64,000 nt of DNA from NCBI GenBank assembly GCA_017609645.1, contig JAFCDQ010000003.1, positions 148,846 through 212,845 of the forward strand, read 5' to 3'. This stretch comes from Candidatus Woesearchaeota archaeon. Its GTDB lineage: Archaea > Nanobdellota > Nanobdellia > Woesearchaeales > ARS49. Every line of letters starts with the position of its first letter. Positions within the stretch are counted from its first letter, which is position 1. The notes under the pieces are model-generated. The model worked only from the letters and a program-made list of their open reading frames with translations, was not told the origin of the DNA and made no database searches. A program made the translations under genes and the position numbers. Shown here in pieces: positions 5,401 through 50,009 of this stretch.

Positions 5401-8400
5401 CTTGTAATGGTATGAATAATTCTTTGTTTAATATATCATATTTGCTTATTGTTCCTGCTATTTCTGGCGGAGTGACTTCTAATTCTTTTTCTCCTTGCCT
5501 GCAGTCGCATTCTCCTTTAAGGAAGCCGTCTGTTTCTTTGCATTTATATCCTTGGCTGCATTTTAATTTTAATCTTAAGTTAAGATCGCTTCCTGGCGCG
5601 ATCATTATTCCAAAATGATAAAGCCATTTTGCTGATCCTTTTACAGGATAACTTGATGGATCATATCCTATGAATCTTCTTGAGCAAGGGAATATTACTG
5701 CTGAGCTGTCTATTGGTACTTCTTCTAATGACATATCAAACAGAACGTCTGGATCTAGGCTCCACGTGCCTGTAAATGCAAATGAGCACATGCTGTGCAC
5801 TAACTTCCTGTCTACAAACATTGCTTTGTATAATCCTGTTCCGCCGTATCTTTCTTCTACATCTCTGCCTACATTACTCGCTGATGTTGTTAATGCTGTT
5901 AATACATTTTCTACGCCTCCTATTTCTACTCTTTTATTTGCTTTTGGCATGCTGTATTTTTCTGAGAAACATTTTACTACATTAAATATTAAATCACACA
6001 CATATGTCTCTAGTACTGCTTGGCATACTCCTTCGCTTCCTTCTCCTGTTGTTCTTACAACATCAAAGCAGTTTTTGGATGCAGTTAGTATGTTTTTCCA
6101 TAATTTCAAATTAGCTACCATGCCTGGCAGGCAGATGCATTGTCCTGAACGCAATAGTCCACTTGATGGTCTGACAATGTATTCTTTGTCTTCTGAACCT
6201 ATTTTTGTGATTATGCTTTCATATAATTCTGTGGCTCTTGCTTTTGTTATGCATGAAGCACCTTTGCCTGCTGCAGTACATAATGCTTTTTGGAATCCTT
6301 CAATATTTTTTATTTTTCCTGTTGCGTAATATTCTTCTATTATTTCTGGTGTGAAGAATGTGTCAGCCTCTGCTGCTTCTAGTTCTATTGCTTCTAGTTT
6401 TGCATTTAAGTAATGTCTTTTTCCTTCTGCAATTATTCCTGATTGCTCGCTTTTTTGGAAGTTAAGAACTTCTACTACATATCCTAGTTTTACTGTGTAA
6501 AGGCTTGTTGATTTTGTTAAGCTCATTAGCACTTTTTGTTCTTCTGTTAATGGTATGACAAACACATAGAGCATTTGTTCTGGGCTGAATTCTGATAATC
6601 CTAATTCTTTTATTTTATCGTCACTAAACTTCACAATCTTGTATGTTTCTGGTGTTGGCCCTCCTTTTGCTTCGCAGAATCCTGCAACAGAGTTCCATAA
6701 TTTGTTGCATTCTACTTTTTCTTTGCCTACTTCAAATTTGTTTTGTCCTACTCTTTCTGAACTTAGGCATGTGCTTTCTTTTATTTCGTCAAATGTGTCT
6801 AAAAATTCTAGTTTACTTAGTCCGCATGCGCTGCCCCAGGTGTCCATGTATTCATATCCACAGCATTCTGCAGTTGCTGGATGAATTCCTGAGCAGCTCA
6901 GTCCTGTTATTTTTTCTTTTTCTCCGTCATCTTGATGTTTTAGATAGTTTCCATATATTTTTTTTACTTCGTCATTGCTAATCATTAATTTTCCTTTTAC
7001 TCCTTTTTTGTTTTGTTTTATCCATGCCGCACAGTCACTGCCTTGGTATATTTTCCCGTCAATGGCGTATTTTGCTGTTTCTGCATTTTTTGGAATATTT
7101 TTTATCTCGCTTATTCTGTTTTGCTGTCTTTTGATGTATGTTTGTAATGTTGGGGCGTCTGGACAAGCTACTCTGTCACATACTTGTTGATAGATTGATT
7201 TTACTTGATTATAAGTTTCTACTGCATCTTGGCAGGATTTACAGTTTGTTTGTGTTTCTCCTGTGTAAATTTCGCACATTCCTGATTTTGCTATGTTTGG
7301 ATTAAATCCTTTTCCTGATAGGAAACTTGCTGCTGCATTTAATTCGCAGTTTAATGTTTTTTGAACTTGAAAGACATACATTAATACATTTCCTGCTAAG
7401 CAGCCTATTGTTGCTACTTTTCCGACTGTTTCTATTGGTTTTAGTATAAAGTCTATTCCTTTTATTATATCTCCAAAACGCCTTGATAAGAATTCTAATG
7501 CTCCTGATGGTATTATGTCAGCAGGGATTAGTTTGTCTATCATCATTTCTTGTTCTATGCATATTTTTTGTACTTTATTCTCGCTTATTTCTTCTTCTAC
7601 ACTTTCTCCTGAGTATGGATCTGTTACCCATCTTTTCTTAACTTCTTGGAATGGAATCTCTAACTCGAGCATAAATCTTCCGCAGCCAAATCCTGGAACA
7701 AGGCAGTTTCCTTCTCTATGATTGCTTAATTCCATTAACCTGTCTGAGGTTAGTGCTTCTGGATCGTCTGAAAGTAAGTCTAGTGGATTAAAATTAAATT
7801 GTATATATCCTTTTACTTTTTCATTTTCATATCCTCGAACAGGTGTTGCTATTGTGTTTATGTTGACCCATCCATTATCATATTGGTTTGCAACTGCTGG
7901 GCTGAGCATCATTGCATTTGCTTTTATTGCGTTTGATCTTAGTCTTATTTTGTTTACGCCTTTGTATTCTAGTTCAAATGCAAGTCCTATTTGCTGCATT
8001 CCTTCAAACATTAATCTTGGAGTTAGTATATCAGGTATTGGTGTTGAGATTCGTGATTCAAACCACGTGCCGTAACCGCATATTGCATATTCTACTATGC
8101 TTTCTGGTGTTTCTGTCATTAATCCTACTGCATCAACAGCCTGTAATTTGATTTTGTTTGCATAACCTCCTCCTGCTTGCAGTGTTGCTCTCATTTCACT
8201 TGAGGTCATGCCTGCTCCTGTTGTTTTTAGAACAATTTGTGCTGCAAATGTTCCATCATTTTCTGTTAGAACTGTTTTTTCTGCTTTGCCGTTCAAGAAT
8301 ACTGTCACGCTTGCTTTTTCATTTAATTTTCCTCTTACTATTACTGCTTTTTTGTATGAAGGGGTTAATTCTTCGAGATTTGTTTCAATGAATTGAGGAG

Positions 8401-9253
8401 GTCCTGAGTCATACATTATTTCTTTCTTTGTGATTGTTCTAAATCCTGCTTCATCTTTTGCAGTTATGATTACTTCATTTTTTCCTTCAAATAAATCTAT
8501 TGGGATTGTAAAGTTTCCTTCAACACTTTTGTTTTTTGTTCGTGATTCATCACTATCTTCTTTATTGATTTGTATTATCAGTGTTACTGGTTCATTCACA
8601 TATCCATTAAGTTCAATTATTTTTTGGGTCGTTACATCTTCTATTTTAATTTCTAATTGAGGAGGTTTTGTGTCAACTTTGACTGTGAATTCTTTTGTTA
8701 GTTCCTGTCCTCCTATATTTATTGCAGTTATTTTCAATTTGTTTGTATCTTTTGTTAATGCTATGTTGGTTATTGTGAATAATTCTTCTTTTGTCAGGAT
8801 GTTTTTCTTTTCTATGCCATTAACAAATACTCTTATTGTTGTCTCAGGAATTGTTTTTCCTTTTATCTCGATGCTTGTGCTTTTTGCTACTTCAGGCACA
8901 TCTAAATCTAGATAGAATTCTTTTACTGTGAATGTTCCTTCTCTCAATGCACAATCAGGGGTAAGCAATTCTGTGCAGCTTAGTATTTTATAGACGTATT
9001 CTCTTTGTTCTGTATTAAATGTAAATTCATGATGTGTTTTCTTGTCTTGGTATGCTTCGCCTAAAATTTCCTTAAAAGAGCCGTATCCATATTCAAATGT
9101 TGCATTTGTTGCGATGTCTGTGTTCCAGGATACTGTTGTTGTGGTTTCTGTGTGTGTGAAAACTACATTTGTGATAAAATCAGGTTGTGCTAATACTGAT
9201 ATTGCTAGTGCTATGATAATGAGGATCATGATGTTTTTTATTTTTATTTTCAT
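2405..9253 (-). CDS. Giant secreted surface protein (2282 aa): signal peptide, FN3-like N-terminal module, Cys-rich central region, about 900-aa K/E-rich coiled-coil C-terminus
   Basis: Single uninterrupted ORF. The N-terminus MKIKIKNIMILIIIALAISVLAQP is a signal peptide, and TVSWNTDIATNATFEYGYG is an FN3-like start. The C-terminal third is heptad-like and Lys/Glu-rich. Its start overlaps the stop of the upstream pilin-like gene by 4 nt. Confidence 0.8.
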   Translation of the reverse strand: MKIKIKNIMILIIIALAISVLAQPDFITNVVFTHTETTTTVSWNTDIATNATFEYGYGSFKEILGEAYQDKKTHHEFTFNTEQREYVYKILSCTELLTPDCALREGTFTVKEFYLDLDVPEVAKSTSIEIKGKTIPETTIRVFVNGIEKKNILTKEELFTITNIALTKDTNKLKITAINIGGQELTKEFTVKVDTKPPQLEIKIEDVTTQKIIELNGYVNEPVTLIIQINKEDSDESRTKNKSVEGNFTIPIDLFEGKNEVIITAKDEAGFRTITKKEIMYDSGPPQFIETNLEELTPSYKKAVIVRGKLNEKASVTVFLNGKAEKTVLTENDGTFAAQIVLKTTGAGMTSSEMRATLQAGGGYANKIKLQAVDAVGLMTETPESIVEYAICGYGTWFESRISTPIPDILTPRLMFEGMQQIGLAFELEYKGVNKIRLRSNAIKANAMMLSPAVANQYDNGWVNINTIATPVRGYENEKVKGYIQFNFNPLDLLSDDPEALTSDRLMELSNHREGNCLVPGFGCGRFMLELEIPFQEVKKRWVTDPYSGESVEEEISENKVQKICIEQEMMIDKLIPADIIPSGALEFLSRRFGDIIKGIDFILKPIETVGKVATIGCLAGNVLMYVFQVQKTLNCELNAAASFLSGKGFNPNIAKSGMCEIYTGETQTNCKSCQDAVETYNQVKSIYQQVCDRVACPDAPTLQTYIKRQQNRISEIKNIPKNAETAKYAIDGKIYQGSDCAAWIKQNKKGVKGKLMISNDEVKKIYGNYLKHQDDGEKEKITGLSCSGIHPATAECCGYEYMDTWGSACGLSKLEFLDTFDEIKESTCLSSERVGQNKFEVGKEKVECNKLWNSVAGFCEAKGGPTPETYKIVKFSDDKIKELGLSEFSPEQMLYVFVIPLTEEQKVLMSLTKSTSLYTVKLGYVVEVLNFQKSEQSGIIAEGKRHYLNAKLEAIELEAAEADTFFTPEIIEEYYATGKIKNIEGFQKALCTAAGKGASCITKARATELYESIITKIGSEDKEYIVRPSSGLLRSGQCICLPGMVANLKLWKNILTASKNCFDVVRTTGEGSEGVCQAVLETYVCDLIFNVVKCFSEKYSMPKANKRVEIGGVENVLTALTTSASNVGRDVEERYGGTGLYKAMFVDRKLVHSMCSFAFTGTWSLDPDVLFDMSLEEVPIDSSAVIFPCSRRFIGYDPSSYPVKGSAKWLYHFGIMIAPGSDLNLRLKLKCSQGYKCKETDGFLKGECDCRQGEKELEVTPPEIAGTISKYDILNKELFIPLQGDQSMVRYDTAELSWSWTDPNGQFRDDSVTCSIGQTGTHPPNFCAFDLFTLSFRCVFGEQEGGVMFRDLTIKAPHTIKQNKKEITIFTIKDKFEAELAISQDYPSPPKPVYNKFLAWQIKDAKGRIVTQKDPASETFAGKTILNTNGDYTVSTLDAGIGNIFVTKEWMGEKTIGMRILEWDKDKETAKMSDTLSQSDIRLSFIRPGELQLFEEFKIIREEKQPYAASISYLLVIDEENGELVYRIHESKDLEDKVKNSAYGFEYTERINLDKGDYKTKIVFIDKAKNIEVVINLPAKDKIGKIKGKRKEFKIIQTIAGDICADAKTKYQPQRFTVIFQAYDADKYGNPTSMQSIDPVIGSPVEMKKEFYVVCEIPEKEIIEEATANDLLFQIRQALDPLDGYINDEKVISDNINVFLQKTDMAKIYVDITNYIEREAEPLESQVEEKLLELIDKYNALAKETEKLQADDLAKILDILTRKLQRFNEVKKNDADIKAYLKGVIDLIEDAQKEKEKVLTEAERLTGVALPPKASEGEAIAKIKEIAIDTIIAKSKSARGQLKEVLPAIQTGKYYTPADTARDHINTYFTELARAEKQITELLESVKTTSQLTEINKFMKNLATKKQIIDDLKKNILKKSSEESVKQNIQKTINEIAEIEIRAMLYVGKITYFKNTLNFLFNNIDAEKELRIKRNAGQATKNQIQKTEIKFLRELQKNYYELPQTLNDLKLNNEWKKQMNAFDMELRKCMNNYQQNCLDNLIIVKENLKTSVVLIRLEFKGEIKPAVKPSPKALNSEMKRYTQTADDAKVFILDILKNSKDYVSGQNMADNLQYLKGKIKAYKAKLSDIHHGYQLQQLNNIIAALDSITPEQTGKYRMEQYVNETLKIPAHLISKSIIEREQQVKKDLLYTEESDLALMRNVLPEEYKLWIYLADNGDLWGVLTLEENFLKVASNIGLTRFDKYQEKIDECRAYKDYVCTEELLLEMINEKYNRVNEIFNY

Positions 9254-34279: not shown

Positions 34280-34981
34280 CTAATATCGTCCGCCTAGATA
34301 AACATTTTTTATTTTCTTGTGTTTTAGAATTTCTTTTCCGCCTTTTAATGCCACTTTACCGTCTTCTAACAAGTAAGTTTTGTCTGCTATCTCTACTGCT
34401 TTTTTTGCATTCTGTTCTACTATTAATATTGCTAAGCCTTCTTTTCTTAAATTTTTAATCATTTTGAAAACTTCTGTAACTAATTTTGGGCTTAATCCTA
34501 AAGATGGCTCGTCTAATAGCAATAGTTTTGGTTCTTGCATCAGCGCTCTTCCTAATGCTAGCATTTGTTGTTGTCCTCCACTTAAAGAAAAAGCATGTTT
34601 TTTCTGTTTTCTTTTTAATTCTGGAAATTTATCAAAAACTTTTTTCATATTTTCAGATAGTTTGTGATTAGTTAATCTTCCACCTAATTCTAAGTTTTCT
34701 TTTACTGTTAAATTTGAGAAATTGATTTTTCCTTGAGGAACATAGCTTATTCCTTTTTTGATTAATTCATGTGTTGGTAATTTTGTTATTTTTTCCCCTT
34801 CAAAATTTATTTTTCCAGAATAAATATCACATAAGTTAAAGACACTTTTTAATACAGTACTTTTTCCTGCTCCATTAGGCCCTATTAACGCAACTATTTC
34901 TCCTGCTTTGACTTCAATATCTATCCCTTGCAGTACTTTTAATTTCCCATATCCTGAGTCAAGTTTCTCTATCTTTAGCAT
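34280..34981 (-). CDS. livF: Branched-chain amino acid ABC transporter ATP-binding protein (LivF-like)
   Basis: Walker A GPNGAGKST, ABC signature LSGGQQQ and Walker B LLLLDEP. Confidence 0.85.
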   Translation of the reverse strand: MLKIEKLDSGYGKLKVLQGIDIEVKAGEIVALIGPNGAGKSTVLKSVFNLCDIYSGKINFEGEKITKLPTHELIKKGISYVPQGKINFSNLTVKENLELGGRLTNHKLSENMKKVFDKFPELKRKQKKHAFSLSGGQQQMLALGRALMQEPKLLLLDEPSLGLSPKLVTEVFKMIKNLRKEGLAILIVEQNAKKAVEIADKTYLLEDGKVALKGGKEILKHKKIKNVYLGGRY

Positions 34982-36226: not shown

Positions 36227-37177
36227 ATGAAATTAAAACTAGATAAAATAGATAAGAAGCTGTTGAGTTATTTATTTCATAACTTCAGAAAACCTATAAC
36301 TCAGATTGCTAAGAATTGCAGGATTTCTAGAGAGCAGGCAGAATATAGAATAAAGAAATATGAAAAATCAGGCTTGATTAACAGATATTTAACAGCTTTT
36401 AATTTATACATGTTTGGATACAGAGAACATTATACTTTGAGGTTGAGAGTTAAGAATCCTAAATCAAAAAATTTAGACAAATTATGCAATAAAAATATAT
36501 TAATATTCACCAGACTTCATTCTTTTGGTGAATGGGATTATATTTTGGCAATTTTTGCAAAAAATAAAACAGATTTCCTTAATTTCATTTCAACATTATT
36601 TAATTCATGGAAAGAAGACCTTCTTGACTACAGCATTTTCGAACCAACAGAAGTGCATTTTTATCCTCTAAAGATATTTGGTAAAAGAGAAGACGACAAA
36701 ACTCTGAGTTTTAAAGAAGATAAAGAGATTAAATTTGATGTTTTAGATAAAAAGCTCATGACAATTCTTGCTAAGAATGCTGATATCAAAATTGTTGATT
36801 TGGCAAGAAAACTCAAAGAAAAAGTAAAGACAATTAGTTACAGATTAAAAAGATTAGAGAAAAATATCATCGTAGGATATAGAATTTTCCTGGATTTAAG
36901 CAAAATAGGTTATAACCTAGCACAATTATCAATTAAATTAAATGATTTGTCAGATTCAACAGTAAGACAATTAAGACAATACGCAAAGCAAAGAGAAAGC
37001 GTGCATGCATTTAATTTAGGTATAGGAAAATATAACACAATGTTTCAAATTATTTATCAAAATCCTAAAGAAGTTAATGAAGAGATAAATAAATTAAAAG
37101 AAATATTCAAAGAAAAGATCATAGAATTTGATGTGACTTTTATTGATAAAGAATTAAGTCCCACATTATATCCTTAA
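36227..37177 (+). CDS. Tandem-duplicated Lrp/AsnC-family transcriptional regulator (two complete HTH plus RAM modules in one 316-aa chain)
   Basis: Both halves carry the AsnC-type HTH pattern (KIDKKLLSYL...IAKNCRISREQAEYRIKKYEKSGLI and VLDKKLMTILAKNADIKIVDLARKLKEKVKTISYRLKRLEKNIIVGY). Confidence 0.8.
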   Translation: MKLKLDKIDKKLLSYLFHNFRKPITQIAKNCRISREQAEYRIKKYEKSGLINRYLTAFNLYMFGYREHYTLRLRVKNPKSKNLDKLCNKNILIFTRLHSFGEWDYILAIFAKNKTDFLNFISTLFNSWKEDLLDYSIFEPTEVHFYPLKIFGKREDDKTLSFKEDKEIKFDVLDKKLMTILAKNADIKIVDLARKLKEKVKTISYRLKRLEKNIIVGYRIFLDLSKIGYNLAQLSIKLNDLSDSTVRQLRQYAKQRESVHAFNLGIGKYNTMFQIIYQNPKEVNEEINKLKEIFKEKIIEFDVTFIDKELSPTLYP

Positions 37178-38349: not shown

Positions 38350-39081
38350 ATGGTAACAAAAGAAGAAGCATTAAAAGAACTGAATTTAAGCGATAAAGAG
38401 GTAAAAGTATATCTATCATTATTAATGCTGGGCCAATCTACTGCTAACTCTATAGCAAAAAAAGCCAGATTAAACAGAGTCACAACTTATGATATTCTTA
38501 AAGCTCTGCTAGAAAGAGGTTTTGTTTCTTATGTTATCAAATCAGGCGTTAAACATTTTGAAGCAGTTGACCCTTCTAAATTTTCAGACACATTAAAAGA
38601 AAAACAAGAAAAAATCAAGGCAATTATGCCAGAATTAAAAGCAATAAAAGCGTCTTTGACAAAAAAACCTCAAGTAGAGATGTTTGAAGAGATCAAAGGT
38701 TTGAAATCAATCTTTAATGATATTCTTAAAGAAAATAAAGAGACTTTGTTTATAGGGGATCCTAAGATGTTAGATAAACTTCAATTTTATTTCCCTCATT
38801 TTATCAAACAAAAGAGAAAACAAGGCATATTCTCTAAAGTAATCACTTTTGACTGTCCTTCTATGAGAAAATACAAGAAACAATCCCCTAAAAAATACCT
38901 TAATATGAAATTCATAAAACAAGAAATAGAAATGACTAAAGTGATTTATGGCAATAAAGTTTCTTTCTTAACCTTTAAGGAAAAGAATTCTATTGGAATA
39001 TTGATTAATAATAAAGATATAGCTGATACTGAAAGAAAATTATTTGATATGTTGTGGAAACAAGCTCATTCTCCTAAATAA
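38350..39081 (+). CDS. TrmB-family transcriptional regulator
   Basis: N-terminal HTH LSDKEVKVYLSLLMLGQSTANSIAKKARLNRVTTYDILKALLERGFV matches HTH_TrmB; 243 aa. Confidence 0.7.
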   Translation: MVTKEEALKELNLSDKEVKVYLSLLMLGQSTANSIAKKARLNRVTTYDILKALLERGFVSYVIKSGVKHFEAVDPSKFSDTLKEKQEKIKAIMPELKAIKASLTKKPQVEMFEEIKGLKSIFNDILKENKETLFIGDPKMLDKLQFYFPHFIKQKRKQGIFSKVITFDCPSMRKYKKQSPKKYLNMKFIKQEIEMTKVIYGNKVSFLTFKEKNSIGILINNKDIADTERKLFDMLWKQAHSPK

Positions 39082-39785
39082 GCATCCAGCACTTTCTTAT
39101 TATTTTGTATTTGTTTAGGTTTGCCCGACGCTATAACTTCTCCTGCATCTAAGACAAATATATGATCTACTAAATCCATAACGAAGTTCATGTCATGTTC
39201 AATCAAAAACACTGTTTCTCCTTTTTTGTTTAAATTTTGAATTATTTTTTTTATTTGTTTCCTTAACTTTGGATTAACTCCAGCTACTGGCTCATCCAGC
39301 ATCAATAAATCATGTGGTTTGGCTAAAGCAACGCCTAAATCTAATAACTTCCTTTGTCCATATGATAAATCACTTCCTAAAGTATGTAATGGCTTAGTCA
39401 ATCCTATCAAATTCATTATTTCTTTTATTTTCCATTCAACATCTTTTTCTTTTGCAAACATTGATTCATCATTTGTTGACAAAGCCATCATGAAATGATC
39501 TTTTATTGTTAAATTCTTGAATAATCGAGGATCTTGAAATGTTCGAGAAATTCCCATTTTAGCGACTTTATTAGGTCTAAATTTATCAATTCGTTCTTGT
39601 TTAAATTTTATAAATCCTGAATTTGGTTTTATCAATCTTGAAATAACATCAAATAATGTTGTTTTTCCAGATCCATTTGGACCTATGAGCGCTGTAATTT
39701 TATTTTTCTTAATTCCTAAACTACATTTATTTAATGCTCTTACTCCTCCAAAGTTTTTAGTTATTTCATGCGCTTCCAATATCAT
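39066..39785 (-). CDS. livG: Branched-chain amino acid ABC transporter ATP-binding protein (LivG-like)
   Basis: Walker A GPNGSGKTT, signature LSYGQRK and Walker B LLMLDEP. Confidence 0.85.
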   Translation of the reverse strand: MILEAHEITKNFGGVRALNKCSLGIKKNKITALIGPNGSGKTTLFDVISRLIKPNSGFIKFKQERIDKFRPNKVAKMGISRTFQDPRLFKNLTIKDHFMMALSTNDESMFAKEKDVEWKIKEIMNLIGLTKPLHTLGSDLSYGQRKLLDLGVALAKPHDLLMLDEPVAGVNPKLRKQIKKIIQNLNKKGETVFLIEHDMNFVMDLVDHIFVLDAGEVIASGKPKQIQNNKKVLDAYLGE

Positions 39786-40654
39786 TCGAGATCAATCCTC
39801 CCAAATAATCCTTTTGGTCTATACAATAATATTCCTAATAATATCAATGCATAGAATATTTGTCTTAATGGTCCTAGTACTGTGCTTGGCAAATACAAAA
39901 ACCTCAATGCTTCTGGGATTAATATAATAATAAAAGTAGCTACTATTGTGCCTTTGATTGACGCTATTCCTCCAACTATTACTATTGTAAATATTAAGAT
40001 TATTTCAGCTAATGAAAAACTGCTTGGATCAATATAAGTTATGTAAGATGCAAATAAGCTTCCTGCTATTCCTGCAAAGAATGCGCTCAGCATCATTGAT
40101 TTTGCTTTTAATTTGAATGTATCTTTTCCTAAAACTTTTAAGCCTATTTCATCATCTCTCACGCCTTGTAACAATCTTCCAAATGGGCTTTTGACTATTT
40201 TATATATTAAAAACACTGTTATAACAGCTAATATTGTTACAAAGATGAAATAAGGCAGTAAGCCGCTGATTTTAAATCCAAATATTACTGGTTTTGGAAT
40301 TCCTGGTATTCCTAATGGTCCTCGAGTTAATTCTGTCAAGTTCAACATTAATGAATAGATTACAAAACTAAATCCTAATGTTGCTAATGCTAAATAATCT
40401 CCTTTTAATTTCCTTGTTGCCAGAACTAGTAAAAATCCAAATATAGCCGCTATTAAGCCTGATATAAAAAAAGCCATAATAAATGAAACTCCTGCTTTTA
40501 ATAATAAGGCAGACGTATAAGCGCCTATTCCAAAGAATGCTACATGTCCTAAATTTAATAATCCTGTAAAACCTAATGCTAAATTCAAACTCACTCCCAG
40601 AATTATGTAAATCGCAATCAAAATCCCAATATGCAGCAAATAAGATTCTATCAT
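39782..40654 (-). CDS. livM: Branched-chain amino acid ABC transporter permease (LivM-like)
   Basis: Polytopic membrane protein; operon position between livH and livG with 4-nt overlaps. Confidence 0.8.
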   Translation of the reverse strand: MIESYLLHIGILIAIYIILGVSLNLALGFTGLLNLGHVAFFGIGAYTSALLLKAGVSFIMAFFISGLIAAIFGFLLVLATRKLKGDYLALATLGFSFVIYSLMLNLTELTRGPLGIPGIPKPVIFGFKISGLLPYFIFVTILAVITVFLIYKIVKSPFGRLLQGVRDDEIGLKVLGKDTFKLKAKSMMLSAFFAGIAGSLFASYITYIDPSSFSLAEIILIFTIVIVGGIASIKGTIVATFIIILIPEALRFLYLPSTVLGPLRQIFYALILLGILLYRPKGLFGRIDLE

Positions 40655-41538
40655 TTCTTCACTCCTTTATTTAATCCAAACAAGCCTGTCGGTTTGAATA
40701 ATAAAAACAAGAATAACAGTAAGAATGTTATTGCATTTTTATATCCTGACGGCAAGAACCATACTCCAAAATTTTCTGCGCCTCCAATAATATAGCTTCC
40801 TAATACTGCAGCAGGCACTGATGTTATTCCTCCTATTACTGCTCCTGTGAAGCCTTTTATCATCAGGCCCATTCCCATTGTTGGTTCTAGGTTTTGTTCC
40901 ATTCCTATTAGTATTCCAGCAAATCCTGCCATTACTGTTCCTAAAATAAATGCTAATGCCATGATTTTTTTAGAGTTTAATCCCATGATTTCTGATAATT
41001 CTGGATTGTCTGCTACTGCTCTCATATCTCTTCCTATTCTTATTTTATGCATGAATAACCATAATAAAACTAATAATAACACTGACGCAATTATTATTAC
41101 TAATTGCAATGGTGTTATGACCGCTCCTAAGAATTTGATTACATGAACTCCTTTGATATAACCTATTGTTTTTACATCTGCTCCATAAGCCATCAAAATT
41201 AGATTTTCAAATAATATCAGCAATCCTACACTTGCTATCAATAAAACTATGCTTGATGATTTTCTTTTCATTAAGGGGCTGTATATTCCTTTATACATCA
41301 AGTAGCCAAATAATCCTGTTATGATTAAAACTAAAATACAGCTGATTAAGAAAGGTATATGTAATAATGAGTACATCTGGAAGAGCATATATGCTCCTAT
41401 TACGACACTCACTCCGTGTGCAAAATGCATAAATCTGCTTGTTGAATATATTAAACTAAATCCAGAAGCCACTAATGCGTATATGCTTCCTGCTATTAAT
41501 GAGTTAACCAGCAACTGAACAAATATATTAAATGCCAT
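40651..41538 (-). CDS. livH: Branched-chain amino acid ABC transporter permease (LivH-like)
   Basis: Polytopic membrane protein; first gene of the livHMG block. Confidence 0.8.
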   Translation of the reverse strand: MAFNIFVQLLVNSLIAGSIYALVASGFSLIYSTSRFMHFAHGVSVVIGAYMLFQMYSLLHIPFLISCILVLIITGLFGYLMYKGIYSPLMKRKSSSIVLLIASVGLLILFENLILMAYGADVKTIGYIKGVHVIKFLGAVITPLQLVIIIASVLLLVLLWLFMHKIRIGRDMRAVADNPELSEIMGLNSKKIMALAFILGTVMAGFAGILIGMEQNLEPTMGMGLMIKGFTGAVIGGITSVPAAVLGSYIIGGAENFGVWFLPSGYKNAITFLLLFLFLLFKPTGLFGLNKGVKK

Positions 41539-41687
41539 TATTTCCTTTTTCTTTTAAATTCAGGCATATTTGTTTTTAAAATTTTGCATATCAGAAGAAG
41601 GGAAAAATAAAATTTAATGCACTAAACGTATTTAAATTTTTAATTGAGCCAATCTCTTCGCATTTTTAATAAAAACTTTTTTAAATG

Positions 41688-41701
41688 CCGAATATATACG
41701 G
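41688..41701 (+). promoter_or_regulatory. Candidate operator CCGAATATATACGG between the TATA-like TTTTTTAAAT and the probable start codon of the HTH_10 regulator
   Basis: Imperfect palindrome. A related copy, CCGAATATGTTCGG, lies at 42380-42393 upstream of the adjacent LivK-like gene. Confidence 0.4.
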
Positions 41702-41708
41702 TTATTGT

Positions 41709-42368
41709 ATGTGGTATATAAAATTCAAAATAAAACATAGTGATTGTGTTTATGCGCCAGAATTAGAAAAGTTAAAGCTTTCAGTATTTTTCTATCCATT
41801 AGGAAATTATAAAAAAAAGGGCTTTATTTTTACTTCGGCTCTTCAAAAAATTTCTGGAAAAGCAAATTCCATTAAAAAATATTTTACTTATCTAAAAAAG
41901 CATAAGAATACTCTAAGAATAGAACAATATGAGAATACTATTTTTACATTAGTTAAACATAAAAAAGTGAAAACAACTTATGAAACAATGTATAATCCTG
42001 CTTTAATATATCCTGCTCCTGCTTTTTTAGACAAAAAAGGATTTGAAATTTGGGAAATTGCTTGCTGGGACAGGAAACCATTAGAAACTTTAATCAGTGC
42101 AATGTCAAAAAGTAAGACAACAATCAGTTTTGAACTTCTTTCTTTTGTAAAAAGAACCCTGCATGAGGTATATATCCTTAATTTGCTTCCAAAATTAAGT
42201 CCAAAACAAAGAGAGGCGATTGAATTAGCTTACAAAGAAGGATATTATGAATATCCCAAAAAAACAGATCTTAATAAGCTTGCAAAAATGATGAAGGTTG
42301 GAAAGTCAACATTTCAAGAGCATCTAAAAAAAGCTGAAAAAAAGATTATTCCCAGATTAATTGAATAA
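41709..42368 (+). CDS. Transcriptional regulator with a C-terminal HTH_10 (bacterio-opsin-activator-type) domain
   Basis: C-terminus LSPKQREAIELAYKEGYYEYPKKTDLNKLAKMMKVGKSTFQEHLKKAEKKII. I chose the Met at 41709 (MWYIKFKIKH) as the start because it aligns with the paralog N-terminus MWIAKFKFKH; the track begins at the ATG at 41685. Confidence 0.7.
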   Translation: MWYIKFKIKHSDCVYAPELEKLKLSVFFYPLGNYKKKGFIFTSALQKISGKANSIKKYFTYLKKHKNTLRIEQYENTIFTLVKHKKVKTTYETMYNPALIYPAPAFLDKKGFEIWEIACWDRKPLETLISAMSKSKTTISFELLSFVKRTLHEVYILNLLPKLSPKQREAIELAYKEGYYEYPKKTDLNKLAKMMKVGKSTFQEHLKKAEKKIIPRLIE

Positions 42369-42379
42369 ATTTTAGAATA

Positions 42380-42393
42380 CCGAATATGTTCGG
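42380..42393 (+). promoter_or_regulatory. Second copy of the CCGAATAT-N-T-CGG motif (CCGAATATGTTCGG), about 85 nt upstream of the LivK-like gene at 42479
   Basis: Inverted-repeat arms CCGAA/TTCGG, preceded by the TATA-like TTTTAGAATA. Confidence 0.4.
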
Positions 42394-42478
42394 ATAAAAT
42401 GTTTTCTACTGCAAACTATCTTCTAAATAACAAAATGAATTGTTACGGGAAAATTTGATGGAAATATAAGGTAAAAAA

Positions 42479-43600
42479 ATGATGAAAAAAATTTTTGCAA
42501 TCATTCTAACATTCCTATTAACCTTAACATTTCTAGCAGGATGTTCACCAGTTAATCAAGAAGAGACTATTAAAGTTGGATTTGTATCTACTCTTTCAGG
42601 TGAAGCAGGTTCTTGGGGTCAACAAGTAAAAAAAGGTTTTGAATTTGCTCTGGAAGAGATTAATACTAACAAGCTTTTAGGAGACAAAAAACTTGAAATT
42701 TTCTATGAAGATGATTTTTGTGATGCGACAAACGGATTAACAGCATTTAATAAATTAATAGATGTTAATGATGTTCAGATAATTGTTGGAACTGTTTGCT
42801 CTTCTGTTGCAATGGCAGTATCAGAGAAGACTCAAAGTAATCATATATTATATCTAGCTTCTGCAGCTACAAATCCTGAAGTAACAGAACAAGGAGATTT
42901 TATATTTAGATTATGGGCTTCAGATGACTATGATGCAAAAGCTATCGCTCAATTTGCTGTTAATGAATTAAGATTAGAAACATTTGCAGTTACTTATGTT
43001 AATGATAATCCTGCAGGCCCCATATTAAAAGATGCTTTTAAAGAAACAATTCTAAAAAAAGGAAAAAAGATTTTGGCAGAAGAATCCTATTCTTCAAAAG
43101 AGACTGATTTTAAAACACATTTAATTAAGATTTTACAAAAAAATCCTGAAGCAGTTTATTTAATGACTAATCCAGAAAGGACTGATTTAATCATAAATCA
43201 AATAAGACAACTAGGTTTTGAGGGCATAATATTTGCTTACGGACCTTCGATCACTTCTGAAGGCGTGGTTGAAAAGATTAAAGATAAAAAAGATATATAT
43301 TATGCTTTGCCGGTTTCAAAACAGGAGACACTATTTTGGAATAAATATAAAGAGAAAAAAGGCGAAGATGCAGATTCTCTCGTGGCTTTAGGTTATGACA
43401 GTATGAAAATTCTTGTTGATGGAATTAAAAAATGTGATGTTGATACTGGGTGTTTAAGAGAATATCTGCTAAAGCTAAAAGATTATGAATCTGCAAGAGG
43501 TAAATTAAACTTTGACTCTGAAGGAGCTTTGACTAATATTGAATTTGAAGTGAAAAAAATAAAATTTAAACCTTACCCAATTCTCCATTCACAACTTTGA
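42479..43600 (+). CDS. LivK-like substrate-binding lipoprotein
   Basis: Lipobox LAGC followed by IKVGFVSTLSGEAGSWG; 373 aa. Confidence 0.8.
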   Translation: MMKKIFAIILTFLLTLTFLAGCSPVNQEETIKVGFVSTLSGEAGSWGQQVKKGFEFALEEINTNKLLGDKKLEIFYEDDFCDATNGLTAFNKLIDVNDVQIIVGTVCSSVAMAVSEKTQSNHILYLASAATNPEVTEQGDFIFRLWASDDYDAKAIAQFAVNELRLETFAVTYVNDNPAGPILKDAFKETILKKGKKILAEESYSSKETDFKTHLIKILQKNPEAVYLMTNPERTDLIINQIRQLGFEGIIFAYGPSITSEGVVEKIKDKKDIYYALPVSKQETLFWNKYKEKKGEDADSLVALGYDSMKILVDGIKKCDVDTGCLREYLLKLKDYESARGKLNFDSEGALTNIEFEVKKIKFKPYPILHSQL

Positions 43601-44681
43601 ATGAATCAAAATCTACCAAGATATCTCCGTTCTCATCAAATGTTATCTCTTGCATTAATCCTTTCCATCCTTTTGTGTTATATAATTCTTTTTTGATGCA
43701 ATCAGTATCTTCTCCGCATTTTTCCATTTTTTCTGCTAATAGAAATAATCCGTCATATAATGTTGCACAAAACACTCCTACATCACATCCAATTGTTTCT
43801 TGTAAATATTTGAAACCTTCTGTTGTTTCATCAAAATGCTGTTTTTGTATAATCATTCCTTCCATATAATCTTTTCCCTCATTTAAAGTATCTCCTAAAC
43901 TAAACATTTCAGCTCCGTAAAGTTTTGCTGAAATATCTTGTTCTTTAACTTGTTTTGCAAAAAGAATTGCTACTGGAATTGTTTGCGGAACTAAATATAT
44001 TGCATCAGGTTCTGATTGTTTTATCTTTAACAATTGCACTCTGAATTCTTTTTCATCAGAATTTACTAGCTCATCTGCAACTATTGTTCCGCCGAATTTA
44101 ACAATTTCTTCTTTGAATTTTTCTCTTAATGCTTGGGCATAGTCAGTATTTTCAGAAAGTACCGCTATTTTTTTGTTTTCTTGTTCAATAACTTTTTGTG
44201 CAGCTACTATTGCTTGATGAACATCTGAACCAACATTTCTAAATATATATTCTCCTGCAGTTGTGATTTCAGGGCTTGTTGATGCTGGCGATAAGAATAT
44301 TATTTTTTTTTCTTCAACAAAAGGCGCAGCTCCTAATGTTTCGCCTGAACAAATTCCTCCAAAAATAGTTTTCACGCCTTTTAAATTAACTAATGTTTGT
44401 GCTGCTGTTAACCCATCTTTTGGATTGCATTTGCCATCTTCAAAAAGCAGATTGAATCTGATATTTTTTTTCTCTTTCTTCAATTTTTCATTTAAGTCTT
44501 CTAATGCTTTCTGTGCTATTTTTTGCCCAATCAAACCATGAAAAGCACCATCTCCTGTTAATGGAAATATTGCGCCTATCTTATAGACTTTAACTTTTTC
44601 TTTTATTGGTTGAGCAATTTGTGTTGTAGTACAAGCTGCCAAGAACAATAAAATCATTATGATTGTGATTATTTTTTTCAT
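43566..44681 (-). CDS. LivK-like substrate-binding lipoprotein (close paralog of 45771..46901)
   Basis: Lipobox LAAC followed by a TTTQ linker and YKIGAIFPLTGDGAFHG. Its C-terminal 50 aa are nearly identical to the paralog. Confidence 0.8.
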   Translation of the reverse strand: MKKIITIIMILLFLAACTTTQIAQPIKEKVKVYKIGAIFPLTGDGAFHGLIGQKIAQKALEDLNEKLKKEKKNIRFNLLFEDGKCNPKDGLTAAQTLVNLKGVKTIFGGICSGETLGAAPFVEEKKIIFLSPASTSPEITTAGEYIFRNVGSDVHQAIVAAQKVIEQENKKIAVLSENTDYAQALREKFKEEIVKFGGTIVADELVNSDEKEFRVQLLKIKQSEPDAIYLVPQTIPVAILFAKQVKEQDISAKLYGAEMFSLGDTLNEGKDYMEGMIIQKQHFDETTEGFKYLQETIGCDVGVFCATLYDGLFLLAEKMEKCGEDTDCIKKELYNTKGWKGLMQEITFDENGDILVDFDSFKVVNGELGKV

Positions 44682-44787: not shown

Positions 44788-45762
44788 TTGTTAAGTAATA
44801 TGCATAAAATAGATTTAAAAGATAAAAAAATACTTTATCAATTAGATCTTAATTGCAGGCAGTCTTTTCAAAAAATTGGCAAAAAAGTCAGGTTAAGTAA
44901 AGAATCAGTTTTTTATAGAATAAAAAAACTTGAAGAACAAGGAATTATTGAAAGTTATTCTACATTGCTTGATATTGGAAAGCTAGGTTATACAAGCTTT
45001 AGAATTTTTCTAAAATTTCAAAACACTACTTCTTCAAAAGAAGAAGAAATAATTAATTATCTTAAAAAAGAAAAAATAGTTGGCTGGTTTGTAACAATTG
45101 AAGGTAATTGGAATGTGAATCTTTGGTTAATGTCTAAAAATGTTGAAGACTTTGATTCTTTCTGGATAAAATTCAAGGAAAAATACATTAATTATATTGC
45201 TAAACAGAAGCTTGCTGTGTTTACTAACATCACATATTTTTCTAAATCATATCTAATAAATAAATTCAATAAAGACAAATGCAGGTTTGTATCTCCACCA
45301 AAACAAGGAAAAATTGATAAAATTAATTTAGAAATTTTAAAACTCTTAGCATCAAATGCTAGACTCCCTACAGTAGATATTGCTCAAAAACTTAAAATTT
45401 CAGCCAAAACTGTTGCTCATAGAATTAAAGATTTAGAAAAAAAGAAAATAATTGTCGGTTTTAAACCATTACTTAATCTTAATAAATTAGGATATTCTTA
45501 TTATAAAGCGCATTTTAAACTGCATAATTTAACTAAAGAAAAAGAAAAAGAAGTAAGGTATTTTATTTTTCAACAGCCCAATATTGTTTATGATAATATA
45601 GCTATTGGGGGCTCTGATCTAGAAATTGATATTCAAATAGAAAATAAAGAAAAACTTCGTGAATTAATCAAAGAAATAAAAGACAAATTCTCTTTAATTA
45701 TCCAGGATTCTGAAATACTGCATTATTTGAAAGAGTATAAGTATGTTACTTTTCCTGTTTAA
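44788..45762 (+). CDS. Tandem-duplicated Lrp/AsnC-family transcriptional regulator (324 aa)
   Basis: Two AsnC-type HTH modules (KILYQLDLNCRQSFQKIGKKVRLSKESVFYRIKKLEEQGII and LEILKLLASNARLPTVDIAQKLKISAKTVAHRIKDLEKKKIIVGF). Confidence 0.8.
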   Translation: MLSNMHKIDLKDKKILYQLDLNCRQSFQKIGKKVRLSKESVFYRIKKLEEQGIIESYSTLLDIGKLGYTSFRIFLKFQNTTSSKEEEIINYLKKEKIVGWFVTIEGNWNVNLWLMSKNVEDFDSFWIKFKEKYINYIAKQKLAVFTNITYFSKSYLINKFNKDKCRFVSPPKQGKIDKINLEILKLLASNARLPTVDIAQKLKISAKTVAHRIKDLEKKKIIVGFKPLLNLNKLGYSYYKAHFKLHNLTKEKEKEVRYFIFQQPNIVYDNIAIGGSDLEIDIQIENKEKLRELIKEIKDKFSLIIQDSEILHYLKEYKYVTFPV

Positions 45763-45770
45763 TGCAAAAA

Positions 45771-46901
45771 TTAAATCTTTACCAATTCTCCATCCACAAC
45801 TCTGAATGAATCATATTGAACTAAGATATCTCCATTGTCATCAAAAGTTATCTCTTGCATTAATCCTTTCCATCCTTTTGTATTGTACAATTCTTTCTTG
45901 ATGCAATCTGTATCTTCTCCGCATTTTTCCATTTTTTCTGCCAAAAGAAAAACTCCATCATAAATTGAAGCACAATATATCCCTAATTCGCATCCTGTCT
46001 CTTCTTGGACATACTTGAATTCTTCAGTAGTCTCATCAAAATGAGCTTTTTGAGTTATCATTCCTTCTAAATAATTCTTCCCCTTTTTCAAGGTGTCGCC
46101 AAAAGTAAAAGCTTCATTTCCGAAAAGTTGTGCTGATATTGTTTGTTCAGTTATTTGCTTAGCAAACATTATAGCTACACGAATATTCTGCGCATTTAAG
46201 TACAATGCATCAGGATTGGCTGTTTTTATTTTTATTAATTGAATTCTTATGTCTCTTTCATTAGAATTAACGACTTCATCAGCGACTATCTCTCCTCCTA
46301 GTTTTTTGATTTCTTCTTTAAATTTTTCTCTTAATGCTTGTGCATAATCAGTATTTTCTGAGAGTACTGCTATTTTTTTATTGCCCTCTCCTAAAATTTT
46401 CTTCGCAGCAACAACAGCTTGATATTCATCAGAACCAATATTTCTAAATATATAATCTCCTGCATTAGTAATCTCAGGGCTTGTTGACCCAGGGGATAAC
46501 ATTATTATTTTATTTTCTTCTGCAAATGGCGCAGCTCCTAATGTTTCGCCTGAACAAAATCCTCCAAAAATTACTTTTATATCTTTTAAATTAATTAGTG
46601 TTTGCGCTGCAGTTAATGCATCTTTTGGATTGCACCTACCATCTTCAAAAACTAGCTCAAATTTTATATTTTTATTTTCTACTTTTAATTTTTTATTTAA
46701 ATCTTCTAATGATTTTTGTATTACTTTTTGTGCAGGCATTCCATAAATAGAAGCATCACCTGTTAAAGGCAATATTAAACCTATTTTATATACTTTTGTA
46801 CCAGTTACTATAATTTCTTTTGATTTTGTTGCAACTTGAGTTGTAGTGCAAGCTGTAACTAAGAACAACATGATTAAAATTGTAAATAGGTTTTTTTTCA
46901 T
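45771..46901 (-). CDS. LivK-like substrate-binding lipoprotein (close paralog of 43566..44681)
   Basis: Lipobox VTAC followed by a TTTQ linker; the 3'-end nucleotide sequence is about 85-90% identical to 43566-43760. Confidence 0.8.
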   Translation of the reverse strand: MKKNLFTILIMLFLVTACTTTQVATKSKEIIVTGTKVYKIGLILPLTGDASIYGMPAQKVIQKSLEDLNKKLKVENKNIKFELVFEDGRCNPKDALTAAQTLINLKDIKVIFGGFCSGETLGAAPFAEENKIIMLSPGSTSPEITNAGDYIFRNIGSDEYQAVVAAKKILGEGNKKIAVLSENTDYAQALREKFKEEIKKLGGEIVADEVVNSNERDIRIQLIKIKTANPDALYLNAQNIRVAIMFAKQITEQTISAQLFGNEAFTFGDTLKKGKNYLEGMITQKAHFDETTEEFKYVQEETGCELGIYCASIYDGVFLLAEKMEKCGEDTDCIKKELYNTKGWKGLMQEITFDDNGDILVQYDSFRVVDGELVKI

Positions 46902-46980
46902 TTTTTGCCTACCTCAAGTTCTAATTTTTTATCTACCTTAAATTATTATTAATAAGTCAAAACTAAATATTTAATCTTTT

Positions 46981-46998
46981 TACCAAACATGTTTGGTA
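46981..46998. promoter_or_regulatory. Perfect 18-bp palindrome TACCAAACATGTTTGGTA between the HTH_10 regulator gene and the LivK-like gene at 45771..46901
   Basis: It is self-complementary over all 18 nt. A degenerate copy overlaps the regulator's own start codon at 47653-47669. Confidence 0.45.
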
Positions 46999-47002
46999 TT
47001 TT

Positions 47003-47653
47003 TTATTTAGAATAAGATAATAAGTTTGGAATAAGTTTCTCTTCAGCTACTCTTATATGCTGTTGATAAGTCGCTAAAGAAACTCCTGTAAGCTTAGCTA
47101 GTTTTCTTAAATCTGTTTTTTTAGGAGTTTTATAATATCCTTCTTTTATTGCCAGTTCTATTGCTCTTTTTTGTTTTGCAGTTAAATCCGGCATTAGTTT
47201 TGGAAAAAACACATTGTCAATGTTTATTTTATTAAATTTTAATAATTCAAAATTTTTTATTCTTTTTTTGACTTTGTTAACAAATTTAGAAACTTCTTCT
47301 TTTTCCCAAGAAGCTATTTCCCACGTTTCATAGCCTTTATCATCGATTAATACTGGCTTGACAAAGATTATTTTTGGCGTATAAAACTCAACTGCTTTGA
47401 TTTGAGCTTTTTCTAAAAGGAAAAACATATCTCCTTTTTGTTCTAGTTTTATTACGTTTTTGTCTTTTTTTAAGTCTAAAACAAAATCAGTCATATTTGA
47501 AGGTCTGCCTGCCATATACTGCAAAGAAGATGTAACAGCTCTTCCTTTATCTTTAAAAACAGAAAAAACAACTCCTTGTATGGTTATCTTAAACTTTTCA
47601 CATCTATTCCCTATTATACAATCATGTTTAAACTTAAACTTTGCTATCCACAT
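47003..47653 (-). CDS. Transcriptional regulator with a C-terminal HTH_10 (bacterio-opsin-activator-type) domain; paralog of 41709..42368
   Basis: C-terminus LTAKQKRAIELAIKEGYYKTPKKTDLRKLAKLTGVSLATYQQHIRVAEEKLIP. Confidence 0.7.
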   Translation of the reverse strand: MWIAKFKFKHDCIIGNRCEKFKITIQGVVFSVFKDKGRAVTSSLQYMAGRPSNMTDFVLDLKKDKNVIKLEQKGDMFFLLEKAQIKAVEFYTPKIIFVKPVLIDDKGYETWEIASWEKEEVSKFVNKVKKRIKNFELLKFNKINIDNVFFPKLMPDLTAKQKRAIELAIKEGYYKTPKKTDLRKLAKLTGVSLATYQQHIRVAEEKLIPNLLSYSK

Positions 47654-47669
47654 ACAAACATGTATGGTA
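47653..47669. promoter_or_regulatory. Degenerate copy (TACAAACATGTATGGTA) of the 18-bp palindrome, placed between a TATA-like TTTATAAAA and the regulator's ATG
   Basis: Matches TACCAAACATGTTTGGTA at 15 of 18 positions and overlaps the start codon at 47653. Confidence 0.35.
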
Positions 47670-47757
47670 TTAGGTTTTATAAAAGTTTTGAAAAATTAGA
47701 AGGCCAATAAATTTTCTCTCATTTTACTAATAATTGTTCAAAGTTCCTGTTAAATGT

Positions 47758-49034: not shown

Positions 49035-50009
49035 ATGAAGCTTGATTTGATTGATAGAAAGATTTTATATGAACTGGATTTTAATGCAAGAATGCCTTTG
49101 ACTAAATTAGCTAAAAAGCTTAGGATTTCAAGGCAGGTTGCTGATTATAGGATTAAGAATTTAGAAAAAAAAGGCATAATAGAAGAATATTTTGTCATTG
49201 TTGATAATGCAAAACTTGGATTAAATTATTTTAGGTTAGTCATCCAAATGACAGATTTTCCAAAAATTAATGAAATTCTTGAATTTGGTAAACAAAATCC
49301 TAATTTGGCTTTTTTAGGCCTTCTTGATGGAATGTGGAATTTATGTATAGGAATTTGGGTCAAGGATATTTCAGAATTTGAAGACTTTTTACGATATGTT
49401 CTTTATAAATACGGAAATTATATTTCAGATAAAGAAGTTTCAATCGGTTTTCAAATCAGACATTTTCAGTCAGGTTTTTTATTAGACAAAAAAGATAATA
49501 AGGAATTCTTAACTGGTGGAAAATTATTTAAAATTAAGCTTGATGATATTGATAAGAAATTACTTATATTATTAAGTAAAAATGCCAGGGAATCAATTTG
49601 TAGTTTAAGCAAAAAGCTTAATATCAGTGAAAGAAGTGCAGCATATAGGATTAGACAATTAAAAAAGAGAAAAGTTATTCTTGGTTATAAAACAAAAATT
49701 GATTATAAAAAACTAGGTTTTTTTAATTATAAAGTTTTTTTTAATTTTAAAAAATTAGAAAAAAAAGATGAAACCGCTTTAATTTTTTATCTCAAACAAC
49801 TGCCAAATTGTATTTATGTGACAAAACCAATAGGAATGGCAGATTTAGAATGTGAACTTCTGATTAGAACAAGAGAAGACTTTTTTAATATAATGCAGGA
49901 AATCATGGAAAAATTTGGATATATCATTAAAAAATACGAACACTTAGTTATTTACAAAGAGCTAATATTAAGATATATTCCTGTAAATTATGACTCTAAT
50001 AAAAAGTAA
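49035..50009 (+). CDS. Tandem-duplicated Lrp/AsnC-family transcriptional regulator (324 aa)
   Basis: Two AsnC-type HTH modules (KILYELDFNARMPLTKLAKKLRISRQVADYRIKNLEKKGII and LLILLSKNARESICSLSKKLNISERSAAYRIRQLKKRKVILGY). Confidence 0.8.
   Translation: MKLDLIDRKILYELDFNARMPLTKLAKKLRISRQVADYRIKNLEKKGIIEEYFVIVDNAKLGLNYFRLVIQMTDFPKINEILEFGKQNPNLAFLGLLDGMWNLCIGIWVKDISEFEDFLRYVLYKYGNYISDKEVSIGFQIRHFQSGFLLDKKDNKEFLTGGKLFKIKLDDIDKKLLILLSKNARESICSLSKKLNISERSAAYRIRQLKKRKVILGYKTKIDYKKLGFFNYKVFFNFKKLEKKDETALIFYLKQLPNCIYVTKPIGMADLECELLIRTREDFFNIMQEIMEKFGYIIKKYEHLVIYKELILRYIPVNYDSNKK

Follow-up and report, generated by a model that had tools for sequence, protein, structure and literature searches.

The question raised by this locus is whether two palindromic sites that bracket the gene for an HTH_10 regulator are read by the protein encoded between them and, if so, what the bound protein would do to its own gene and to the gene beside it. 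Both sites lie in the window, by which we mean the whole 64 kb stretch of DNA analyzed here (~30% G+C), and fall within the Liv-type ABC transporter locus that occupies its 34-50 kb portion. The regulators of this locus are three double Lrp/AsnC proteins, one TrmB protein, and two HTH_10 proteins. Between 34280 and 50009, seven Peripla_BP_6 (LivK-like) paralogs surround a single livFGMH set, each gene paired with its own regulator, and the array gives the impression of a set of substrate receptors, each with a switch of its own, that all serve one permease. The transporter genes, the regulators of the Lrp/AsnC and TrmB types, and the binding-protein gene next to the second palindrome are placed as follows:

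34280-34981: livF, a Liv-type ABC transporter gene
36227-37177, 44788-45762, and 49035-50009: three "double" Lrp/AsnC regulators, with two HTH_AsnC domains each
38350-39081: TrmB regulator
39066-41538, minus strand: livG, livM, and livH, Liv-type ABC transporter genes
42479-43600, plus strand: Peripla_BP_6 (LivK-like) substrate-binding lipoprotein (Pfam E 8.6e-46), presumed target of regulator 1

The last of these genes runs toward another binding-protein gene on the minus strand (43566-44681), and the 3' ends of the two overlap by 35 bp (43566-43600). Elsewhere in the window, the minus strand carries a very large ORF at 2405-9253 (2282 aa), followed on the same strand by ORFs of 663, 870, 1085, and 711 aa.

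The two palindromes and the elements around regulator 1 are these:

41671-41686, plus strand: BRE-like AAAAAC and TATA-like TTTTTTAAAT (41677-41686), the promoter of regulator 1 as read from the sequence
41688-41701, no strand assigned: O1, CCGAATATATACGG, putative operator (putative autorepression site) between the TATA box and the ATG at 41709
41709-42368, plus strand: HTH_10 regulator 1 (Pfam PF04967), 219 aa, with a beta-rich N-terminal domain (residues 1-150) and a C-terminal HTH (165-218)
42380-42393, no strand assigned: O2, CCGAATATGTTCGG, putative operator 11 nt past the stop codon of regulator 1 and directly 5' of a BRE/TATA-like stretch of the next gene
42394-42408, plus strand: BRE-like ATAAAA and weak TATA-like TGTTTTCTA, 3' of O2, aligning with the family pattern GTAAAA-TTTTATATA and with the weak ATAAAACATTATCT of locus L001, an ortholog
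42421-42431, plus strand: alternative TATA candidate TTCTAAATAAC, 3' of O2, as read from the sequence

When the window was searched for CCGAATATRTWCGG with at most two mismatches, O1 and O2 were the sole matches, each on both strands, against an expectation of 0.29; four matches were reached in none of 100 shuffles. They are also the sole occurrences of CCG-N8-CGG in the 64 kb (expected 0.15). Further copies that might be the sign of a regulon were absent from the window within two mismatches, and the looser CC-N10-GG matches found elsewhere in it, which by their coordinates apparently lie inside listed ORFs, lack the arms of O1 and O2. An earlier sequence-only reading had placed the two 14-mers at these coordinates, on either side of an HTH_10 regulator gene and ahead of a LivK-like gene; the 14-mers are indeed found there and are unique in the window, and Pfam bears out the identity of the gene between them (PF04967, 68.6 bits vs a cut-off of 23.1) and that of the gene adjoining the second site (Peripla_BP_6). 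Control of the divergent livHMG genes from O1 was also considered and rejected for want of positional support, because the distance from O1 is ~150 nt to the start of livH and ~110 nt to the probable TATA box of that gene, as judged by eye.

The match of regulator 1 to HTH_10 (E 4e-19) spans residues 171-222 of a 227-aa ORF whose mechanical start is at 41685, and the ATG at this position belongs to an unconserved upstream extension. The ATG at 41709 is taken as the real start because the alignment with the paralog in the window begins at Met-9 of the 227-aa ORF, which is the methionine of ATG 41709; because most database homologs are ~219 aa long and align from that same methionine; and because 79 of 80 related loci have an ATGTGG start. 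The homologs come from MAGs of Woesearchaeota, Pacearchaeota, Nanoarchaeota, Aenigmatarchaeota, and Micrarchaeota, which assigns the window to a DPANN archaeon. An AlphaFold model of the regulator is confident (mean pLDDT 90.7); the C-terminus has a helical helix-turn-helix fold of the sigma-70 region 4/LuxR type, and the N-terminal domain has a beta-rich fold that is closest to Ta1207, with weaker matches to ACT/ferredoxin-like regulatory domains (NikR C-terminal domain, 6.3; prephenate dehydratase ACT domain, 5.8). At E 0.01 or better, Pfam returned only HTH families for regulator 1 and no family for the N-terminal domain. Sequence profile search found no relative of this HTH_10 subfamily in the PDB, and NCBIfam gave no family for the regulator, only sub-threshold sigma-70-like matches. 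On the modeled fold, a role of the N-terminal domain as a small-molecule sensor is plausible. Neither the subfamily nor its sites were found described in a limited library of literature on HTH_10, DPANN regulators, and Ta1207, which is weak evidence of novelty.

The center of the TATA box of regulator 1 lies ~26 nt 5' of ATG 41709, a distance to be expected if the mRNA is leaderless, as in archaea, and the family consensus has AAAA..TTTAAATA at the same relative place. With the transcription start placed by this spacing and by the leaderless pattern, O1 occupies the TATA-to-start position in which, according to one report, archaeal repressors block recruitment of RNA polymerase, while activators bind just 5' of the BRE (PMC5937170). 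The arrangement is repeated at the second HTH_10 gene of the locus:

45771-46901, minus strand: Peripla_BP_6 binding protein, presumed target of regulator 2, with its ATG 82 nt past O2'
46967-46982, minus strand: TAAAAAG-ATTAAATAT, a BRE/TATA directly 3' of O2' that fits the family consensus
46983-46996, minus strand: O2', CCAAACATGTTTGG, putative operator, a perfect palindrome after the stop codon that extends to 18 bp (TACC..GGTA)
47003-47653, minus strand: HTH_10 regulator 2, 216 aa, 39% identical to regulator 1 (HTH_10, 58.3 bits)
47654-47667, minus strand: O1', CCATACATGTTTGT, putative operator that abuts the ATG at 47653 and has 12 of 14 positions in common with O2'
47675-47684, minus strand: TATA box TTTTATAAAA of regulator 2, as read from the sequence

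Thus regulator 2 is flanked, like regulator 1, by TATA-palindrome-ATG on one side and stop-palindrome-BRE/TATA on the other. From regulator 1 to regulator 2 the half-sites differ by a symmetric change, from CCGAA/TTCGG to CCAAA/TTTGG, and O1' departs from the pattern in ending with GT, not GG. The minus strand at 47651-47666 also holds an alternative inverted repeat, CATACA-TGTT-TGTATG, which is shifted by ~1.5 nt, includes the ATG at 47653, and is the one chosen by RNAfold.

A survey of the family covered 82 loci, made up of 80 homolog loci (from one-genome-per-species contigs; ~340 genome hits) and the two genes of the window. Sites were defined as CC-N10-GG palindromes with at least five of seven complementary pairs, sought in the 75 nt 5' of the start and in the 90 nt around the stop. 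A palindrome was present within 75 nt 5' of the start in 51 of the 82 loci and within 90 nt of the stop in at least 44, the latter search range being too narrow to catch several further sites, which extend across the stop codon or are located at a greater distance; 31 loci had a palindrome in both regions. The remaining ~466 kb contained 96 matches, which puts the enrichment at starts and stops at ~30-50 fold. Under this strict pattern, a recognizable site is absent from about one-third of the loci.

The sites before the start conform to a single layout in 42 of the 82 loci, in which a BRE/TATA is followed by the palindrome and then by a leaderless ATGTGG start (consensus: AAAA..TTTAAATA, ~5 nt, CCnnnATATnnnGG, T, ATGTGG). 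In 18 loci the end of the palindrome is 1 nt from the ATG; for most of the others the figure is 2-9 nt. The architecture of TATA, operator, and ATG that the earlier reading had described for site 1, with a start at 41709, is therefore confirmed and recurs in the paralog of the window and in these 42 loci; the same comparison strongly supports its suggestion of autoregulation, and from its place in the sequence site 1 is very probably an autorepression operator. A minority of loci (L032, L022, L025, and L065, together with the CCTGCATATGCAGG group) have the palindrome 5' of their own BRE/TATA, not 3' of it, and this suggests that the autoregulatory mode has flipped in the course of evolution. 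In L027, L032, L034, and L076 (positions 3009-3022), a CC-N10-GG palindrome arises inside the gene, 8 nt from its beginning, out of the conserved N-terminal coding sequence ATGTGG-nnC-CTGAAATTTAAGG (MW.LKFK). The codons for Lys-Phe-Lys may simply happen to produce it, or it may be an additional, partly concealed site.

The sites around the stop share a second layout (44 loci), consisting of AAAA, the palindrome CCnnn..nnnGG, GTAAAA at +1 (A 95-97%), and TTTTATATA at +7; by its sequence, GTAAAA-TTTTATATA is a predicted BRE and TATA box. Counted from the palindrome, the first ATG that opens a long ORF is at +37 or +38 in eight loci, and in 17 of 39 it falls between +33 and +48. Such distances are to be expected of leaderless genes driven by the TTTTATATA TATA. 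In the window the distances are +86, for the LivK-like gene, and +82, which implies 5' leaders of ~45-50 nt ending in AAGGT or GAGGT; the AAGGT of the LivK-like gene is 7 nt 5' of its ATG. In five loci of the CCTGAATATTCAGG class, the second site is found 660-2180 nt past the stop codon of the regulator, 5' of GTAAAAATTATTTAT of a convergent neighboring gene whose ATG follows at +38 to +77. Because in this class the site stays at the BRE/TATA of the convergent gene, the second site belongs to the target promoter and not to the 3' end of the regulator gene.

For the second site of the window, one part of the earlier reading stands and another does not. O2 had been described as sitting behind a TATA-like element, but the A/T-rich stretch 5' of it is the stop-codon region of regulator 1 and is unconserved in orthologs with 68-80% identity. 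Control of the adjoining gene from site 2 is, as a general idea, supported. The conserved element is the BRE/TATA directly 3' of the palindrome. Site 2 thus lies 5' of the target promoter, since GTAAAA-TTTTATATA follows the palindrome and the ATG of the next gene is often 37-38 nt from the palindrome, and in the predicted promoter its position is that of activators or of BRE occlusion, not that of a PIC block between TATA and start. The TATA after O2 is weak in the window (ATAAAATGTTTTCT) and in L001 (ATAAAACATTATCT), which fits dependence on an activator. A better TATA-like element, TTCTAAATAAC, occurs 27 nt farther on, and the spacing from O2 to the promoter in the window locus is therefore uncertain.

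The palindromes are not one fixed sequence, and their variation bears on which protein reads them. Their arms differ among loci (CCTTC, CCTGA, CCTGC, CCTCA, CCGCA, CCGTA, CCGAA, CCGAT), and the two sites of a locus resemble each other: over the inner 10 nt they agree at 7.9 positions, compared with 5.8 ± 0.26 for shuffled pairings (none of 10,000 shuffles gave as much agreement as observed), and the 3-nt arm core is identical in 25 of 31 loci (expected 10.7). The recognition helix has the motif T-F-[QR]-E-[HN]-L. Residue 203 of this helix (Q/R) is coupled only to half-site position 4 (0.59 bit vs at most 0.06 bit elsewhere; none of 300 permutations as high), Arg-203 going with a pyrimidine (T/C) there in 28 of 28 loci and C never occurring with Gln, while position 3 is T in 21 of 21 loci with Asn-205, although phylogeny inflates these figures and they are partly confounded by it. 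When the regulators are grouped into clusters at 55% identity, a pyrimidine is found at position 4 in seven of seven Arg clusters, and the largest cluster by itself contains the switch as well. Such covariation is supportive rather than decisive in tying the palindromes to the HTH_10 protein.

With three double Lrp regulators and one TrmB regulator in the same locus, it is conceivable that a different factor, such as one of these, binds the sites, or that O1 and O2 are a chance pair. However, the palindromes accompany HTH_10 genes in 80 unrelated contexts in which Lrp and TrmB proteins are not conserved neighbors, and they covary with the HTH_10 helix; chance is excluded by the uniqueness of the pair in the window, by the enrichment at starts and stops, and by the matching of arms within loci. 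We consider both ideas extremely improbable.

Nor do the data favor a role in RNA. Both sites are inverted repeats, and a symmetric G-to-A/C-to-T change between paralogs, as seen here, would keep a stem intact, so that the palindromes could in principle be RNA hairpins (a 5' structure ahead of the regulator gene and, behind that gene, a terminator or processing signal) and not protein-binding DNA. O2' does fold better than shuffled sequence (z -2.5), but the stems measure just 5-7 bp and have low stability (-4.6 to -5.5 kcal/mol), z is not significant in three of the four cases (-0.07 to -0.44), and no T-run directly follows the stems, whereas an intrinsic terminator would have a stable G+C-rich stem with a T-run after it. 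Further, O1 would not be transcribed, because it lies between the TATA box and a leaderless start; in five loci the second site is remote from the 3' end of the regulator gene and belongs to the promoter region of a convergent gene; and the coupling to a residue of the recognition helix would be left unexplained. Hairpins are thus a highly improbable account of these sites.

Conservation of the sites extends to orthologs whose surroundings differ. Five orthologs with 68-80% identity (L001, L081, L083, L084, and L085) have CCGAACATATACGG at the position of O1 before the start and CCGTATATGTTCGG, CCGAACATATTCGG, or CCGTACATGTTCGG after the stop; the genes downstream from them encode a polyprenyl synthase or small hypothetical proteins, and none encodes a binding protein. 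The expectation that the downstream gene is always a binding protein is accordingly rejected, this pairing being seen, among the surveyed loci, only in the window. In the 37 loci aligned, the genes behind the operator-BRE/TATA module include those for polyprenyl synthases (four), Orn/Arg decarboxylases (three), and HisG (two), and in one locus the gene for a TATA-binding protein. L081 holds two paralogous HTH_10 cassettes close together (1304-1954 and 3172-3831), the first of which has CCGACAATTGTCGG and TAAAAACTTAATATATA past its stop codon and no obvious CC..GG before its start.

The palindromes could also be imagined as boundaries of a mobile gene cassette, that is, as recombination or target-duplication sites, and this would explain the unrelated neighbors. 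The downstream genes do differ among orthologs that are 77-80% identical (binding protein, polyprenyl synthase, small hypothetical proteins), and an IS1595-family transposase gene (L085, 3714-4475) lies two genes downstream from an orthologous regulator cassette. This transposase may bear on how cassettes come to lie beside unrelated genes. As an explanation of the palindromes themselves, however, cassette boundaries are very unlikely: throughout the family the sites keep exact distances to TATA, ATG, and BRE; the arms change together with the HTH from one locus to the next, a pattern not to be expected of a common recombinase; no recombinase is linked to the loci; and the second site is sometimes located beyond a convergent gene. 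From the locus-specific arms, the covariation, the conservation in orthologs, and the second site at the target promoter, we infer that the palindromes belong to the adjoining HTH_10 protein.

We consider it likely that a dimer of the intervening HTH_10 protein reads both palindromes, acting at O1 in autorepression and at O2 most likely in activation; binding, the stoichiometry of the dimer, the sign of regulation at each site, and the ligand are all inferred. The dimer would bind a palindrome of 14-18 bp whose half-sites are about one helical turn apart. Protein bound at O1, between the TATA box and the leaderless start, would block recruitment of RNA polymerase and so bring about negative autoregulation. 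A small molecule, perhaps an amino acid, is the probable ligand of the beta-rich N-terminal domain and would switch DNA binding. At O2, the regulator most likely activates the LivK-like gene by stabilizing TFB/TBP on a weak promoter, or, less probably, acts by BRE occlusion. Activation of the binding-protein gene is favored because the arrangement at O2 is that documented for TFB-RF1 (PF1088) of Pyrococcus furiosus, whose palindrome lies a fixed short distance directly 5' of a weak BRE/TATA of the target, to which TFB is recruited (PMC5937170).

The reverse outcome at O2 deserves to be weighed against this. A bound dimer that overlaps the BRE might stop TFB from binding, and a ligand would then derepress both the regulator and the binding-protein gene. 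The end of the palindrome is only 0-1 nt from GTAAAA or ATAAAA, and a footprint a few base pairs wider would cover the BRE; the BRE consensus looks strong and not activator-dependent; and repression is the commoner mode among described archaeal regulators, as the introduction of the same report has it (PMC5937170). On the other side, promoters that depend on an activator are expected to have a poor TATA, and the one after O2 is poor both at the regulator 1 locus of the window and in L001; the conserved placement of the site immediately 5' of the BRE is documented for an activator, TFB-RF1 (PMC5937170); and the site 5' of their own BRE/TATA in L032, L022, L025, and L065 suggests that the two positions differ in outcome. 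We regard repression from O2 as the less likely outcome, although a serious alternative. The family consensus GTAAAA, which looks normal and not weak, does argue against a strict need for an activator of the TFB-RF1 type, and leaves room for repression by BRE occlusion.

The comparison with TFB-RF1 concerns the position of the site. Both regulators are encoded beside a target, and the targets of TFB-RF1 include an ABC transporter; its motif, TCTGAA-N-TTCAGA, is unlike the present sites, however, the BREs of its promoters are demonstrably weak, and neither autoregulation nor a site between TATA and start is mentioned in the text searched (PMC5937170). Here, a second copy of the site is found in that position, at the promoter of the regulator itself.

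Position-dependent control from a single motif has a precedent. The glycolytic motif of TrmB/TrmBL1 in Thermococcales is one palindrome that represses when 3' of the TATA box and activates when 5' of the BRE/TATA, which is the same logic as that proposed for the HTH_10 regulator. However, TrmB proteins are another family, of which regulator 1 has no Pfam match, and TrmBL1 is a global regulator with many sites, whereas the present regulators have about two sites each, flanking their own gene. Bacterial LysR-type regulators are local one-component proteins that repress their own promoter and activate an adjoining gene from related palindromes, again resembling the autorepression and neighbor activation proposed here; they differ in acting at sigma-70 promoters and usually in divergent pairs that share one intergenic region, whereas most of the present genes are arranged in tandem, with a separate copy of the site at each promoter and in an archaeal BRE/TATA context. 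A C-terminal HTH_10 (PF04967) is shared with Bat (bacterio-opsin activator) and other haloarchaeal HTH_10 proteins, but the N-terminal GAF/PAS and BAT domains of Bat-type activators were not found in regulator 1 (Pfam, E 0.01). Resemblance of the motif to NarL/GerE-type HTH domains is a lead, although regulator 1 differs from the response regulators of that type in having no GerE Pfam match at E 0.01 and no receiver domain. By its sequence features, this uncharacterized subfamily falls into an ordinary class of systems, in which a one-component regulator acts locally through palindromic operators, here putative ones.

HTH_10 is a large archaeal regulator family; we know of no defined recognition code for it, and to our knowledge transcription control in DPANN archaea is essentially unstudied. 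The analysis yields ~60 predicted regulator-operator pairs; a promoter consensus for uncultured organisms, with a BRE of GTAAAA, a TATA box of TTTATATA, and leaderless starts; and a specific, testable residue-base hypothesis. The locus at which a TATA-binding protein gene would be under such a regulator is worth a look. For the transporter locus, the findings suggest that, among the seven LivK-like paralogs in the window, two are each switched by a sensor of their own. Regulators that are nearly the same, and whose operators are identical, are followed in different genomes by genes for a polyprenyl synthase, a binding protein, or small uncharacterized proteins, and for this reason we put forward, tentatively and with more doubt than confidence, a wider reading in which the HTH_10 subfamily would be a portable, self-contained module of DPANN archaea: a 5' autorepression operator and a 3' outward-facing operator with BRE/TATA would bring any adjoining gene under ligand-dependent control, and a simple specificity code, made up of the operator arms and one or two residues of the recognition helix (203 R/Q with base 4; 205 N/H with base 3), would keep paralogs in the same genome orthogonal. 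What the survey adds is a family-wide promoter and operator architecture in DPANN archaea that is unusually clean.
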